In this document: in pieces, positions 6,339-32,564 of the stretch
Layout of the letters: every line of letters starts with the position of its first letter
Position numbering within the stretch: position 1 is the stretch's first letter
Origin: Escherichia coli
GTDB taxonomy: Bacteria > Pseudomonadota > Gammaproteobacteria > Enterobacterales > Enterobacteriaceae
Assembly (NCBI RefSeq): GCF_029227855.1
Contig: NZ_CP074356.1
DNA: 64,000 bases
Strand: one strand, 5' to 3'
Made by a program: the position numbers and the translations under genes
The notes under the pieces: generated by a model
Told to the model about the DNA's origin: nothing
Seen by the model: only the letters and a program-made list of their open reading frames with translations
Database searches by the model: none

Positions 6339-6956
6339 TTAATCGTGGCGATGCCTTTCCTGAATAGCCGTTAATGAGCCGACTTCTAACGCTTCTTTAT
6401 AGTGTTTACGGCATACAGAAACGTAGCGTTCATTACCACCAATAACCACCTGCTCACCTTCGTTATAAGGTCTGCCTGCTTGATCAAGACGCAGCACCAT
6501 GCTTGCTTTGCGGCCACAAAAACAGATGGTTTTTAATTCAACCAGTTTGTCGGACCATGCCAGTAAGTATTGGCTGCCAATAAATAACTCACCTCGAAAA
6601 TCGGTACGTAAACCATAACAAAGTACGGGTATATCGAGTTGATCGACAACCTCCGATAATTCATATACTTGTTGTCTGGTTAAAAACTGGCATTCATCAA
6701 CCAGTACGCAATGAATTGCCTGCTGTTCATGTTCCGCACGAATCTCATCAAATAATGATGAATTTTGGTTAAATAATTTTGCAGGCGATGACAAACCTAT
6801 ACGCGAGCTGACTTTCCCGGCACCAAAGCGATCATCAATTTCTGCCGTATATACGACAGTGCGCATGCCGCGTTCCTGGTAATTGTATGAAGATTGCAAC
6901 AATGCTGTAGACTTACCCGCATTCATTGCGGAATAGTAGAAATATAGCTGTGCCAT
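6339..6956 (-). CDS. tdk: Thymidine kinase
   Basis: 205 aa [29 protein letters not shown] with P-loop; recognised as E. coli Tdk. Confidence 0.95.
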
Positions 6957-7559: not shown

Positions 7560-7973
7560 ATGAGCGAAGCACTTAAAATTCTGAACAACATCCGTACTCT
7601 TCGTGCGCAGGCAAGAGAATGTACACTTGAAACGCTGGAAGAAATGCTGGAAAAATTAGAAGTTGTTGTTAACGAACGTCGCGAAGAAGAAAGCGCGGCT
7701 GCTGCTGAAGTTGAAGAGCGCACTCGTAAACTGCAGCAATATCGCGAAATGCTGATCGCTGACGGTATTGACCCGAACGAACTGCTGAATAGCCTTGCTG
7801 CCGTTAAATCTGGCACCAAAGCTAAACGTGCTCAGCGTCCGGCAAAATATAGCTACGTTGACGAAAACGGCGAAACTAAAACCTGGACTGGCCAGGGCCG
7901 TACTCCAGCTGTAATCAAAAAAGCAATGGATGAGCAAGGTAAATCCCTCGACGATTTCCTGATCAAGCAATAA
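7560..7973 (+). CDS. hns: Nucleoid-associated DNA-binding protein H-NS
   Basis: 137 aa [44 protein letters not shown] ... TWTGQGRTP; matches E. coli H-NS. Confidence 0.97.
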
Positions 7974-8026: not shown

Positions 8027-8064
8027 TGTCCGGTTTAAGACAATTTAATAAGAATAAGCTATAA

Positions 8065-8776
8065 TAAATATCCTCCGGCATAGCCGGAGGTTTTTCAAAT
8101 GCGCCTATAAGGCTCTCTTACCAGCCGCGCCCTAACAGGCGCACACGATCTGACATTTGCATCCAACTTCGTTACTTACGGCCCGTAAACGGGCTGCCCG
8201 GATAGGGAATCGATAACTGCTCTCCCATTTTATCCTCTTCAAGCTGGTGCTTTATGTAATCCTGTATCTTCGCCGTGTTCTTACCCACCGTATCGACGTA
8301 GTACCCTCTGCACCAGAACTCCCTGTTCCTGTATTTGAATTTCAAATCACCAAACTGCTCGTAAAGCATCAGACTGCTTTTCCCTTTCAGATATCCCATA
8401 AAGCCGGATACGCTCATTTTGGGCGGGATCTCCACAAGCATATGGATATGATCTGCACAGCATTCAGCTTCCAGAATCCGTACACTTTTCCACTCACACA
8501 GCTTTCTCAAAATACTGCCTATTGCTCTACGCTTCTCTCTGTAGAACACCTGTCTTCGGTATTTTGGCGCAAAAACTATGTGATATTTACAGTTCCATCG
8601 GGTGTGCGCTAAGCTCTTTTCGTTCCCCATTGGGACCCCCTTTTGATTTCTTGTTTGACACTTGCAGTTGCCAGACCGCAAGGTGTTTTAACAAATCAAA
8701 AGGGGTTTTAATAACTGGCTTAAAGCTGAAAGCTTTCCGGAACCCCCAGCCTAGCTGGGGGTTTTCTGTGCACAAA
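8065..8776 (-). mobile_element. IS200 (IS200/IS605 family) copy 1, tnpA oriented on minus strand
   Basis: 712 bp unit repeated in direct tandem; contains Y1 HuH transposase ORF and terminal palindromes TCCTCCGGCatagCCGGAGG (8071-8090) and CCCCCAGCctaGCTGGGGG (8743-8761); boundaries ambiguous by +/-2 bp. Confidence 0.85.
8172..8630 (-). CDS. tnpA: IS200 transposase TnpA (Y1 HuH single-strand transposase), 152 aa from the internal ATG
   Basis: MGNEKSLAHTRWNCKYHIVFAPKYRRQVFY...HIHMLVEIPP (HxH motif) ...IQDYIKHQ (catalytic Tyr); ORF track's longer 169 aa version (8172..8681) starts at an upstream TTG. Confidence 0.88.
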   Translation of the reverse strand: MGNEKSLAHTRWNCKYHIVFAPKYRRQVFYREKRRAIGSILRKLCEWKSVRILEAECCADHIHMLVEIPPKMSVSGFMGYLKGKSSLMLYEQFGDLKFKYRNREFWCRGYYVDTVGKNTAKIQDYIKHQLEEDKMGEQLSIPYPGSPFTGRK

Positions 8777-9488
8777 TAAATATCCTCCGGCATAGCCGGA
8801 GGTTTTTCAAATGCGCCTATAAGGCTCTCTTACCAGCCGCGCCCTAACAGGCGCACACGATCTGACATTTGCATCCAACTTCGTTACTTACGGCCCGTAA
8901 ACGGGCTGCCCGGATAGGGAATCGATAACTGCTCTCCCATTTTATCCTCTTCAAGCTGGTGCTTTATGTAATCCTGTATCTTCGCCGTGTTCTTACCCAC
9001 TGTATCGACGTAGTACCCTCTGCACCAGAACTCCCTGTTCCTGTATTTGAATTTCAAATCACCAAACTGCTCGTAAAGCATCAGACTGCTTTTCCCTTTC
9101 AGATATCCCATAAACCCGGATACGCTCATTTTGGGCGGGATCTCCACAAGCATATGGATATGATCTGCACAGCATTCAGCTTCCAGAATCCGTACGCTTT
9201 TCCACTCACACAGCTTTCTCAAAATACTGCCTATTGCTCTACGCTTCTCTCTGTAGAACACCTGTCTTCGGTATTTTGGCGCAAAAACTATGTGATATTT
9301 ACAGTTCCATCGGGTGTGCGCTAAGCTCTTTTCGTTCCCCATTGGGACCCCCTTTTGATTTCTTGTTTGACACTTGCAGTTGCCAGACCGCAAAGTGTTT
9401 TAACAAATCAAAAGGGGTTTTAATAACTGGCTCAAAGCTGAAAGCTTTCCGGAACCCCCAGCCTAGCTGGGGGTTTTCTGTGCACAAA
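8777..9488 (-). mobile_element. IS200 copy 2, head-to-tail with copy 1
   Basis: Second 712 bp unit, about 99% identical to copy 1 with at least five substitutions (e.g. 8290 vs 9002, 8403 vs 9115, 8474 vs 9186); same terminal palindromes at 8783-8802 and 9455-9473. Confidence 0.85.
8884..9342 (-). CDS. tnpA: IS200 transposase TnpA, copy 2
   Basis: Protein identical to copy 1 TnpA; the nucleotide differences between copies are synonymous or outside the ORF. Confidence 0.88.
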   Translation of the reverse strand: MGNEKSLAHTRWNCKYHIVFAPKYRRQVFYREKRRAIGSILRKLCEWKSVRILEAECCADHIHMLVEIPPKMSVSGFMGYLKGKSSLMLYEQFGDLKFKYRNREFWCRGYYVDTVGKNTAKIQDYIKHQLEEDKMGEQLSIPYPGSPFTGRK

Positions 9489-9540: not shown

Positions 9541-10449
9541 TTACTTCTTAATGCCCATCTCTTCTTCAAGCCAGGCTTTAAATTCCGTGCCAAGGGTGTT
9601 ATGACGAATACCGTATTCAACGAAGGCCTGCATGTAACCTAATTTATTACCGCAGTCATGGCTCTTCCCTTTCATATGATAGGCTTCCACCGTTTCTTTT
9701 TCGATCAGCATATCAATTGCGTCGGTGAGCTGAATTTCATCACCAGCTCCCGGAGGGGTTTTTGCCAGCAACGGCCAAATATCCGCGCTAAGTACGTAAC
9801 GACCCACAATAGCGAGATTAGACGGCGCAACATCCGCTTTCGGTTTTTCTACCACACCAACCATCGGTACGCTTTCACCCGGCGCTAATTCAACGCCTTT
9901 ACAATCCACAACGCCATATGCGGTAACATCAGCAACCGGTTCAACCATGATCTGGCTATGACCCGTTTCATCAAAGCGGCGGATCATCTCTGCCAGGTTA
10001 TCCTGTGACAAATCGGATTCATATTCATCCAGAATAACGTCAGGCAAAATAACAGCCACAGGTTCATCACCCACTACCGGGTGAGCACACAATACCGCAT
10101 GTCCCAGGCCTTTCGCCAGCCCCTGACGAACTTGCATAATAGTCACGTGCGGCGGACAAATAGACTGCACTTCATCAAGCAGTTGACGTTTTACACGTTT
10201 TTCCAGCATTGCTTCCAGTTCAAAACTGGTATCAAAGTGGTTTTCAATCGAGTTTTTAGATGAGTGAGTAACCAGCACAATTTCAGTAATGCCAGCCGCA
10301 ATACATTCATTCACGACGTATTGAATTAATGGCTTATCGACAAGTGGCAGCATCTCTTTCGGGATGGCTTTCGTCGCCGGCAACATCCTGGTTCCTAATC
10401 CCGCAACGGGGATAACGGCTTTTTTGACTTTCGTATTAATGGCAGCCAT
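9541..10449 (-). CDS. galU: UTP-glucose-1-phosphate uridylyltransferase GalU
   Basis: 302 aa [49 protein letters not shown]. Confidence 0.96.
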
Positions 10450-14282: not shown

Positions 14283-14367
<85 letters not shown>

Positions 14368-14401
14368 TCTCAAGCATTACCTCAAAATTTGAATTACCCC
14401 T

Positions 14402-14486
<85 letters not shown>

Positions 14487-14542
14487 TCACTTTTCAAAAG
14501 TCCGTGAACTCTCAAACGAATCCGCAATTAAATATTCTGCCC

Positions 14543-14629
14543 ATGCGGGGAAGGATGAGAAGCTTCGACCAAGGTGCGACTCGGGCGCCAGCGAGAAAGC
14601 GTTGCCGCAGGCAACGACCCGAAGGGTGA
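14543..14629 (+). CDS. tpr: Protamine-like small protein Tpr encoded in the tyrT operon 3' repeat region
   Basis: Short arginine-rich [31 protein letters not shown] downstream of tyrV, followed by a partial repeat of the tRNA 3' end (TCCTTCCCCCACCACCATCACTT at ~14650). Confidence 0.5.
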
Positions 14630-14751
14630 AGCGCGCAGCGCTGAGTAATCCTTCCCCCACCACCATCACTTCCTGTAAATACTCAAAACCTGTTACTCCG
14701 AGCTAATTCTACCCAATGGCACCGCGTTTACCGGACCTACAATATCCTCCC

Positions 14752-29405: not shown

Positions 29406-30506
29406 ATGTCAAATGCTCAAGAGGCGGTAAAAACCCGCCACAAGGAGACTTCGCTTATTTTCCCGGTTCTGGCGCTGGTAGTGCTGTTCCTGTGGGGAAG
29501 CAGCCAGACACTACCAGTGGTCATTGGCATCAATCTTCTTGCTCTTATTGGTATTTTAAGTAGCGCCTTTAGTGTTGTCCGTCATGCGGACGTATTAGCC
29601 CATCGCCTGGGAGAACCTTACGGTTCGCTTATTCTTAGCCTTTCAGTGGTTATTCTTGAAGTCAGTTTGATTTCAGCTTTAATGGCAACCGGCGATGCAG
29701 CGCCAACGCTAATGCGTGATACGCTCTATTCAATCATTATGATTGTTACCGGTGGGCTGGTTGGCTTTTCATTATTGTTGGGCGGACGCAAGTTTGCCAC
29801 CCAATATATGAATCTGTTTGGTATCAAGCAGTATTTAATTGCGCTGTTCCCCCTGGCGATAATCGTACTGGTATTTCCAATGGCTCTGCCTGCGGCGAAT
29901 TTTTCAACCGGTCAGGCGTTACTGGTAGCATTAATTTCTGCGGCAATGTATGGCGTATTTTTGCTGATCCAGACCAAAACGCATCAAAGTTTATTTGTCT
30001 ACGAGCACGAAGATGACAGTGATGATGACGACCCGCACCACGGTAAACCGTCTGCCCATAGCAGCCTTTGGCATGCTATCTGGTTGATTGTCCATCTGAT
30101 TGCCGTTATTGCAGTCACCAAAATGAACGCCAGCCCGCTGGAGACATTGCTCGACAGCATGAATGCCCCTGTCGCCTTTACTGGCTTCCTGGTGGCTCTG
30201 TTGATTCTGTCGCCGGAAGGTTTAGGTGCGTTAAAAGCAGTGTTGAACAACCAGGTCCAGCGCGCGATGAATCTGTTCTTTGGTTCAGTGTTAGCAACCA
30301 TTTCGCTTACCGTACCTGTCGTCACGCTAATTGCCTTTATGACGGGTAACGAATTGCAGTTTGCACTTGGTGCGCCAGAAATGGTAGTGATGGTGGCCTC
30401 TTTAGTGCTGTGCCATATCTCCTTCTCCACCGGACGTACTAACGTGCTCAATGGCGCAGCGCATCTGGCACTGTTTGCCGCCTATTTGATGACGATATTT
30501 GCCTGA
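29406..30506 (+). CDS. chaA: Ca2+/H+ (Na+/H+) antiporter ChaA
   Basis: 366 aa from ATG at 29406 (MSNAQEAVKTRHKETSLIFPVLALVVLFLWG); acidic DDSDDDD loop. Confidence 0.94.
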   Translation: MSNAQEAVKTRHKETSLIFPVLALVVLFLWGSSQTLPVVIGINLLALIGILSSAFSVVRHADVLAHRLGEPYGSLILSLSVVILEVSLISALMATGDAAPTLMRDTLYSIIMIVTGGLVGFSLLLGGRKFATQYMNLFGIKQYLIALFPLAIIVLVFPMALPAANFSTGQALLVALISAAMYGVFLLIQTKTHQSLFVYEHEDDSDDDDPHHGKPSAHSSLWHAIWLIVHLIAVIAVTKMNASPLETLLDSMNAPVAFTGFLVALLILSPEGLGALKAVLNNQVQRAMNLFFGSVLATISLTVPVVTLIAFMTGNELQFALGAPEMVVMVASLVLCHISFSTGRTNVLNGAAHLALFAAYLMTIFA

Positions 30507-30796
30507 CAGTTATATCTCCTCCGATGACAGAAATCGGGGGAGATAATATAAATTCCTGCTTATTGTATTTCTTCATACTACCTGAACAGGTTGTTAATCA
30601 GAATTGCGAGCCTGTACCAGAACCTGCACGAAACCACTGCAACAGCTGTTGAAAAGCCGGAATGTACTCTTTATTGCAAACATTTCAGGGATGAAGTGAA
30701 GATGAATTGAGACGTAGTATCCACACCAAGCCGGCGTTATCCGGTGAGGCGCAATGTTGCGGGGGCTTTATCCCTGGTGGCATTGGTTGCTGGAAA

Positions 30797-30862
30797 GAGA
30801 AAACCCCCGCACGTTGAGAGGTAAAACCTGACAACAGAACGGGGGCTAATCTTGAACCATCA
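30797..30862 (-). ncRNA. rdl: Rdl antisense RNA (type I antitoxin), approximate coordinates
   Basis: Minus-strand hairpin-rich segment ending in CGGGGGUUUUCUCUUU terminator, antisense to the ldr 5' leader; position by analogy with known LDR architecture. Confidence 0.45.
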
Positions 30863-30911
30863 ACAATTCAAGAATAGCCGCAAAATGTTGTCATTACAAC
30901 AAGGCGGCTAT

Positions 30912-31019
30912 ATGACGCTCGCGCAGTTTGCCATGATTTTCTGGCACGACCTGGCAGCACCGATCCTGGCGGGAATTATTACCGCAGCGATTGTCAGCTG
31001 GTGGCGTAACCGGAAGTAA
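30912..31019 (+). CDS. ldr: Ldr type I toxin peptide (35 aa)
   Basis: MTLAQFAMIFWHDLAAPILAGIITAAIVSWWRNRK. Confidence 0.9.
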   Translation: MTLAQFAMIFWHDLAAPILAGIITAAIVSWWRNRK

Positions 31020-31332
31020 GGTGAAAACGGGCGTCAGGCTGCCGTGATGGCAATATGCGCCCGAAACCGGCCGCAGGTGTAACAGCCTGCGGCCTTTTTT
31101 GTCTTTATCTCTTCCACAAGTAAATATTGGCAACCCGAGCTGGAAGCATCATCCAGAGCACTCATGAAACGACTGTAACAGCTGTTGAAAAACCGGAATG
31201 CACTCTTCATTGCATACATTTCAGGGATGAAGTGAAGATGAATTGAGTCGTAGTATCCACACCAAGCCGGCGTTATCCGGTGAGGCGCAATGTTGCGGGG
31301 GCTCTATCCCTGGTGGCATTGGTTGCTGGAAA

Positions 31333-31398
31333 GAGAAAACCCCCGCACGTTGAGAGGTATAACCTGACAACAGAACGGGGGCTAATCTTGAACCAGAA
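31333..31398 (-). ncRNA. rdl: Rdl antisense RNA copy 2, approximate coordinates
   Basis: Same segment as in unit 1, ~535 bp downstream. Confidence 0.45.
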
Positions 31399-31445
31399 CA
31401 ATTCAAAATAGCCGCAAAATGTTGTCATTACAACAAGGCGGCTAT

Positions 31446-31553
31446 ATGACGCTCACGCAGTTTGCCATGACTTTCTGGCACGACCTGGCAGCACCGATCC
31501 TGGCGGGAATTATTACCGCAGCGATTGTCAGCTGGTGGCGTAACCGGAAGTAA
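31446..31553 (+). CDS. ldr: Ldr type I toxin peptide (35 aa), variant copy
   Basis: MTLTQFAMTFWHDLAAPILAGIITAAIVSWWRNRK (A4T and I9T relative to copy 1). Confidence 0.9.
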   Translation: MTLTQFAMTFWHDLAAPILAGIITAAIVSWWRNRK

Positions 31554-31700
31554 GGTGAAAACGGGCGTCAGGCTGCCGTGATGGCAATATGCGCCCGAAA
31601 CCGGCCGCAGGAGTAACAGCCTGCGGCCTTTTTTGTATCCGGCCCCATGAAAAAAGCCTTAACGCAGAACGCTAAGGCTTTAGTTTTCAAGCAAAAAAGA

Positions 31701-32564
<864 letters not shown>

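Follow-up and report, generated by a model that had tools for sequence, protein, structure and literature searches.

Between chaA and kdsA, the Escherichia coli DNA analysed here (64,000 nucleotides of contig NZ_CP074356.1, assembly GCF_029227855.1; hereafter the window) carries two LDR (ldr/rdl) toxin–antisense units, and the toxin peptides that these units encode are not identical. This raises the question whether the array departs from the known chromosomal LDR locus, either in its number of units or in the specificity with which the antisense RNAs pair with the toxin mRNAs, or whether it represents one of the usual forms of that locus. The feature between chaA and kdsA is the known LDR type I toxin–antitoxin repeat, present in two copies as an ordinary haplotype. 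The two units were assigned to the LDR family because both scored above the gathering threshold of the Rfam rdlD model, both encode peptides matching the Ldr_toxin profile, the locus is syntenic with that of K-12, and the units are 96-98% identical to their K-12 counterparts. We therefore hold with high confidence that the array is a two-unit haplotype of the E. coli array represented in K-12 by LDR-A, LDR-B, and LDR-C, and that its units would function as independent type I modules.

A repeat search resolved the chaA–kdsA gap into two tandem direct LDR repeats with a period of 534-536 bp. The search returned two repeat families, one covering the 5' segments of the units (30560-30859 and 31096-31395; 87% identity, 536 bp from start to start) and one covering their 3' segments (30873-31102 and 31407-31636; 99% identity, 534 bp from start to start). 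When the two units were aligned with MAFFT, the mean column identity was 96%, and nearly all of the divergence fell within the first ~70 alignment columns, where unit 1 adjoins chaA and unit 2 adjoins the terminator of unit 1. Each unit has the same order of parts: a leader, Rdl on the opposite strand, the 35-aa ORF, and a terminator (Table 1). A first-pass annotation of this DNA had already placed two LDR units in the chaA–kdsA interval, and this assignment was borne out by Pfam, Rfam, synteny, and the repeat search. Its unit length of ~480 bp describes the highly similar core of the units well but not the period of the repeat, and its start of the array at 30620 has to be moved, as unit 1 begins ~60 bp earlier. 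The small indels that it mentioned could be located at two places, namely at the Rdl 5' end (30860-30861) and after 31406. Tandem Repeats Finder reported nothing between 30000 and 32000, which is no argument against the repeat because the LDR period of 535 bp exceeds the 500 bp maximum period of that program and the repeat search shows the repeat.

Table 1. Features of the chaA–kdsA interval and its flanks, in window coordinates.
Feature	Position	Strand	Evidence and remarks
chaA (Na+/K+:H+ antiporter), left flank	29406..30506	+	ORF; chaA annotation in the 100% identical JNEC-KY178 record
LDR unit 1, chaA-proximal	30560..31102	+	repeat families, unit alignment, comparison with K-12 units
rdl-1 antisense RNA	30798..30863	-	Rfam rdlD RF01813, 83.6 bits, full length (1-66)
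Predicted hairpin enclosing the ldr-1 Shine-Dalgarno region (AAGGCGG), directly 5' of ATG	30874..30911	+	ViennaRNA local fold, -19.6 kcal/mol
ldr-1 toxin ORF, 35 aa	30912..31019	+	MTLAQFAMIFWHDLAAPILAGIITAAIVSWWRNRK; WP_000170955.1; Pfam PF13940 Ldr_toxin, 86 bits
Intrinsic terminator, ldr-1 mRNA	31069..31100	+	terminator scan: 10-bp stem, 8 GC pairs, then T run
LDR unit 2, kdsA-proximal	31096..31636	+	repeat families, unit alignment, comparison with K-12 units
rdl-2 antisense RNA	31334..31399	-	Rfam rdlD RF01813, 87 bits, full length
Private 1-nt deletion, G missing (TTCAAGAATAG to TTCAAAATAG)	31406..31407	.	45-nt probe; closest relatives carry the G
Predicted hairpin enclosing the ldr-2 Shine-Dalgarno region, directly 5' of ATG	31408..31445	+	ViennaRNA, -19.6 kcal/mol
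ldr-2 toxin ORF, 35 aa, T4/T9 allele	31446..31553	+	MTLTQFAMTFWHDLAAPILAGIITAAIVSWWRNRK; WP_000176713.1; Pfam PF13940 Ldr_toxin, 87.2 bits
Intrinsic terminator, ldr-2 mRNA	31603..31634	+	terminator scan: 9-bp stem, 8 GC pairs, then T run
kdsA, right flank of the array	31701..32555	-	ORF and annotation

Both peptides matched the Pfam Ldr_toxin profile end to end (positions 1-35 of 35, with a cut-off of 27 bits), and none of the NCBIfam HMMs matched either of them. Just as the first-pass annotation had stated, the translated ORFs differ only at residues 4 (A in Ldr-1, T in Ldr-2) and 9 (I in Ldr-1, T in Ldr-2), and the underlying nucleotide changes are at 30921 and 30937. Ldr-1 is identical to LdrA and LdrC of K-12. 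Ldr-2 carries A4T and I9T when compared with these two, and A4T and G29S when compared with LdrB; T4 is thus absent from the K-12 peptides, while T9 is shared with LdrB. As a protein, Ldr-2 is a multispecies RefSeq entry present on 995 contigs, and its distinguishing N-terminal coding sequence, queried with a 45-nt probe over both variant codons, had exact matches in 332 (~6%) of the 5,426 complete E. coli genomes searched. The two ORFs are also annotated by PGAP as Ldr family toxins in JNEC-KY178, a complete genome that is identical to the window at this locus. The Ldr alleles of the window are therefore catalogued and not unusual. Further Ldr alleles encountered along the way show variation at residues 5, 7, 8, 20, and 29.

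We also considered membership of the hok/sok family, since the Rfam sok model (RF01794) gave hits of 27 and 25.3 bits on the ldr leaders. This candidate was rejected: the scores are below half of the sok gathering score of 59, the hits lie on the ldr sense strand, and the peptides belong to Ldr_toxin, with no match of either peptide to the Hok family in the Pfam scan. The proposed regulatory logic is nonetheless one that hok/mok/sok shares with ldr/rdl, in that both have a long structured leader and an antisense RNA that acts upstream of the toxin RBS, possibly via a leader ORF (PMC4147584).

For the comparison with K-12, the window units and LDR-A, LDR-B, LDR-C, and LDR-D were cut in register and then aligned. 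The gene order in MG1655 is kdsA, ldrA/rdlA, ldrB/rdlB, ldrC/rdlC, chaA, in agreement with the three K-12 units that the first-pass annotation had given for this interval. The K-12 array shares with that of the window its locus, its orientation relative to chaA and kdsA, the ~535-bp unit, and the order of parts, and differs from it in having three units instead of two. Unit 1 and LDR-C, both chaA-proximal, are 96.6% identical, and unit 2 is 97.9% identical to its closest K-12 unit, LDR-A, both being kdsA-proximal. The fourth K-12 unit, ldrD/rdlD, is the experimentally characterized member of the family. It has the conserved FWHDLAAP peptide core, the Rdl stem-loop, and the antisense overlap with only the 5' UTR in common with the window units, but it sits between bcsG and yhjV, its peptide differs at many positions, and its DNA is only 66-68% identical to theirs.

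The alignment also carries a trace of how unit 2 may have arisen. At the 20 columns that discriminate LDR-A from LDR-B, unit 2 is A-like at 15, B-like at 4, and unique at 1, and the B-like sites are the three most 5' columns (10, 48, and 70) plus codon 9. This pattern fits an unequal crossover near column 70 that joined a B-type to an A-type unit, together with some gene conversion. The scenario is only suggestive because K-12 is not an ancestor of the window strain. In general, the most likely route to a changed number of units would be unequal homologous recombination among the repeats, along with gene conversion.

We next turn to the question whether two units are exceptional. Unit numbers among the 5,426 complete E. 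coli genomes were estimated from the record span in a spread sample of 60 records and with a 68-nt probe for the junction between units; the coverage of a two-unit query, in which BLAST pieces are joined, does not separate arrays of one, two, and three units. In the spread sample, ~18 arrays had two units (including O157:H7 and two arrays with IS200C), 13-14 had one (including ST131, APEC IMT5155, and E2348/69), and ~26 had three. The junction probe matched 4,065 of the 5,426 genomes at 6,536 places in total, and the number of places per genome had a median of 2 and reached 6 at most. The ~25% of genomes that lacked a junction match therefore have at most one unit, and the probe counts imply exactly one junction, and thus two units, in roughly 1,600-1,700 genomes (~30%), and more junctions in ~45%. 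Arrays that were checked individually had two units in O157:H7 H2495, one in E2348/69, and three each in O111:H8, JS01, B1-56, KSC64, and K-12. The unit number between chaA and kdsA is accordingly a common polymorphism, with one unit in ~25%, two in ~30%, and three or more in ~45% of genomes. This is in line with the work of Fozo et al. (2010, PMC2887945), who described lineage-specific duplications and losses of Ldr loci and counts that differ per genome. The O157:H7 array is a close parallel, as it also has two units and is colinear with the window at 97.9% identity over 5.2 kb; its peptides (...AMTFW...VG... and ...AMIFW...VG...) nevertheless represent another combination of alleles.

The first-pass annotation had left room for a third unit lost in assembly. 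Tandem 535-bp repeats with 91-99% identity can collapse in short-read assemblies, and a strain with three units, like K-12, would appear to have two if one repeat had collapsed; three or more units are present in ~45% of the genomes. However, the units of the window can be told apart by their 5' segments and meet at a clean junction, and both the 1.4-kb and the 5.2-kb regions around the array are 100% identical, as one colinear piece, to the RefSeq complete genome of JNEC-KY178 (NZ_AP045174.1). Moreover, ~29 further complete genomes of the lineage, assembled independently and 99.8% identical, have both alleles in the order of the window and differ by an IS200C element between the unit 2 terminator and kdsA. 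Considering also how frequent two-unit arrays are among complete genomes, O157:H7 included, a collapse is extremely improbable, and we rejected a collapsed third unit on the strength of the full match to a complete genome and of the ~29 two-unit sister assemblies.

With copy number explained as a haplotype difference, the question remained whether the two units differ in RNA pairing. In both units Rdl is complementary to the ldr 5' UTR and not to the RBS or start codon, and the Rdl 5' end lies 47-49 nt upstream of the ldr ATG, the distance being 49 nt in unit 1. The Rfam rdlD model has a gathering score of 50, which both Rdl RNAs clearly exceed, and their predicted stem-loop folds are similar in energy (-27.3 kcal/mol for Rdl-1 and -26.7 kcal/mol for Rdl-2). 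The two RNAs are identical at 61 of 66 positions and differ in one base of the apical loop (U in Rdl-1, A in Rdl-2) and in 4 of the first 5 bases. The base at the loop position varies among units and strains, with AAAA, ATAA, ACAA, or TTAA on the sense strand. The Rdl 5' end as found in unit 1, whose sense-strand tail is ACCATCAAC, occurs in 2,816 of the 5,426 genomes. This 5' end (UUGAU...) has no counterpart in any K-12 unit, but it recurs in unit 2 of O157:H7 and, in JS01 and B1-56, in the middle unit.

It had been proposed in the first-pass annotation that the differences in peptide sequence and copy number may change the specificity of toxin–antitoxin pairing. Our analysis does not support this. 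Both codon differences in ldr are outside the segment that is complementary to Rdl and therefore have no effect on RNA pairing. In addition, the predicted energies were -133.1 and -136.5 kcal/mol for the cognate duplexes and -123.6 and -124.0 kcal/mol for the cross-duplexes, meaning that the latter would retain ~91-93% of the cognate energy. On thermodynamic grounds the two Rdls should thus cross-react, and near-completely so. The opposite view is that the units are functionally diverged, orthogonal pairs, in which each Rdl would neutralize its own ldr mRNA only. For this view speaks the location of the differences, since the apical-loop position is a hot spot of variation, the Rdl 5' end is variable as well, and loop–loop contacts often set the specificity and kinetics of antisense RNAs. 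A precedent is provided by the Sib RNAs, which are reported to tell apart near-identical Ibs mRNAs (PMC2943612). Some degree of specificity through kinetic discrimination by the loop base is therefore conceivable. Given the position of the peptide differences, the large majority of shared Rdl positions, and the modest loss of energy in the cross-duplexes, and with no RdlA/B/C cross-talk experiment found in the searched literature, we nevertheless regard orthogonal pairs as very unlikely. The sequence differences between unit 1 and unit 2 are standing allelic variation and not a new specificity.

The remaining differences between the units concern the ldr leader. A simple sigma-70 consensus scan passed no promoter for ldr or rdl in either unit, and the transcription starts were for that reason placed with the help of the K-12 annotation and the ends of the Rfam models. 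By eye, a candidate promoter, TTGTAA-17-TATTCT, can be seen upstream of Rdl on the minus strand. Directly before each ldr ATG, a hairpin that encloses the Shine-Dalgarno region is predicted by folding of the leader (Table 1).

Leader ORFs are of interest here because Gerdes and Wagner, as cited in PMC4147584, put forward a leader ORF termed ldrX whose translation would be needed for ldr translation and would be blocked by Rdl, a model that is unproven. In LDR-B and LDR-C of K-12, a frame of 20 codons begins at a TTG within the Rdl target and stops at an ATGA that overlaps the ldr start (+4). LDR-A has a longer ORF, which starts with GTG, uses the frame of the LDR-B/C TTG, and likewise stops at the ATGA of ldr, and in LDR-D an upstream GTG frame continues in frame into ldrD. 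In window unit 1, the TTG at 30852 shares the frame of ldr, and an extended ORF of 55 aa could result. The corresponding leader frame of unit 2 is cut short by a private deletion, its stop at 31409-31411 lying 34 nt ahead of the ldr ATG. A further ORF of 25 codons that starts with ATG (30754-30831 and 31290-31367) is kept in all units examined, LDR-D included, with the exception of K-12 LDR-C, in which the loss of 1 nt puts it out of frame. The configuration of leader ORFs relative to ldr is thus not conserved across units.

The private deletion in unit 2 is the sole unusual detail of the array. A 45-nt probe that spans the missing G matched only JNEC-KY178 among the 5,426 genomes, and this G is present in the nearest relatives, 7/2 and 98205, which are otherwise identical to the window over the array as far as 31650. 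The deletion may be a real and recent mutation, or it may be an error of sequencing or base calling. Its site belongs both to the putative -10 box of rdl-2 and to the ldr-2 leader, and read from the sequence it turns the minus-strand -10 hexamer from TATTCT into TATTTT. The deletion could consequently alter the geometry of the rdl-2 promoter or the coupling of the leader ORF, and one may ask whether unit 2 is regulatorily altered or decaying, with a changed rdl-2 -10 box or start and a truncated leader ORF that could uncouple ldr-2 translation. The rarity of the deletion and its absence from the closest relatives are compatible with this, as is the contrast between the leader ORFs of LDR-A, LDR-B, and LDR-C, which end at +4 of ldr, and the unit 2 frame, which stops at -34. 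Yet the hexamer still has 4 of 6 consensus matches, and the predicted energy of the Shine-Dalgarno hairpin is -19.6 kcal/mol with or without the G. Furthermore, the ldrX coupling on which the argument depends is itself unproven, and unit 1, a common allele found in 2,816 genomes, has its TTG in frame with ldr instead of coupled to it. Taking into account that the deletion may be a base-calling error, we consider an altered or decaying unit 2 unlikely. Very unlikely, too, is a reading in which the bases that vary between units (the loop base and the initial ~5 nt of Rdl, together with the leader-ORF frame relative to ldr) are not neutral and make the units partly orthogonal or differently regulated pairs, with the G deletion in addition uncoupling or re-tuning ldr-2.

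We return to the reading of the array as an ordinary two-unit haplotype, in which each ~535-bp unit would constitute an independent type I toxin–antitoxin module. Ldr, a 35-aa membrane toxin, would be translated from a stable mRNA that has a long 5' UTR, and a cis-antisense Rdl of ~66 nt would be transcribed from the strand opposite this 5' UTR. Pairing of Rdl with the leader would then repress Ldr synthesis post-transcriptionally, the duplex being a probable substrate of RNase III, and the repression may operate through the leader ORF, as in hok/mok/sok. For the present alleles, toxicity and repression by Rdl would hold by analogy with the literature on LdrD/RdlD and LdrA. Overproduction of LdrD kills cells; RdlD, whose overlap is with the long 5' UTR and not with the RBS, counteracts this effect (PMC4147584). 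An RNase III-dependent double-stranded RNA of ~21 nt has been recovered from the region where ldrD and rdlD overlap (PMC7373196). LdrA, which has the same peptide sequence as Ldr-1, was reported to be toxic and described as a single-pass inner-membrane and presumably pore-forming toxin that blocks ATP synthesis (PMC12643268).

Altogether, the locus is a textbook type I toxin–antitoxin array that was already known, and it matters little beyond its correct annotation. The questions that it touches concern the whole family, namely cross-neutralization among tandem Rdl RNAs and the leader ORF as a mediator of repression. The frequencies of arrays with one, two, and three or more units, together with the T4/T9 allele in ~6% of genomes, provide context for those who use the three copies of K-12 as their reference.

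At the array of two tandem ldr/rdl type I toxin-antitoxin units (LDR array), a single-base deletion of a G was found in the kdsA-proximal unit (unit 2) at window position 31406/31407, where it falls in both the unit 2 leader and the putative -10 region of the antisense RNA rdl-2. This deletion was present in 1 of the 5,426 complete E. coli genomes; if it is not a sequencing error, it is a private mutation.

Array structure was also considered in strain KSC64, which carries three units. The spacing between its second and third ldr toxin ORFs was 847 bp (locus L011, 6555-7295) instead of the usual 535 bp, which suggests that the KSC64 array contains a degenerate additional unit or has gained ~310 bp by insertion.

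In ~29 complete genomes, IS200C was inserted in the stretch that separates kdsA from the terminator of unit 2, at a point that corresponds to window position ~31651. These genomes, which include strains 7/2, 98205, AR_0067, and YDC107, were 99.8% identical to the window at the LDR array. The window and JNEC-KY178, a complete genome identical to it across the array region, are without IS200C at this point.

Elsewhere in the window, the gap between hns and galU was occupied by two near-identical IS200-type elements in tandem (8063-9480), with a spacing of 712 bp. In addition, the order of two tRNA genes followed by an RtT element on the plus strand (14283-14665) presumably resembles the K-12 tyrT-tyrV/rtT arrangement, which would agree with the synteny of the window.

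Feature coordinates in the window
Feature	Position	Strand	Remark
hns	7560-7973	+	flanks IS200-type pair
tnpA ORF, first IS200-type element	8172-8681	-
STnc490, first element	8640-8763	-	Rfam match
tnpA ORF, second IS200-type element	8884-9393	-
STnc490, second element	9352-9475	-	Rfam match
galU	9541-10449	-	other flank of pair
tRNA gene	14283-14364	+
tRNA gene	14402-14483	+
RtT element	14534-14665	+	3' of the tRNA genes
sok (RF01794), sub-threshold	30761-30914	+	27 bits, E = 0.003
sok (RF01794), sub-threshold	31297-31448	+	25 bits, E = 0.008

Finally, the Rfam sok model (RF01794; gathering score 59) gave two sub-threshold matches, both of which lie on the sense strand of an ldr leader and have their 3' limit at the ldr AUG. 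These matches may be due to chance, or the ldr leader may faintly resemble the hok leader in structure.
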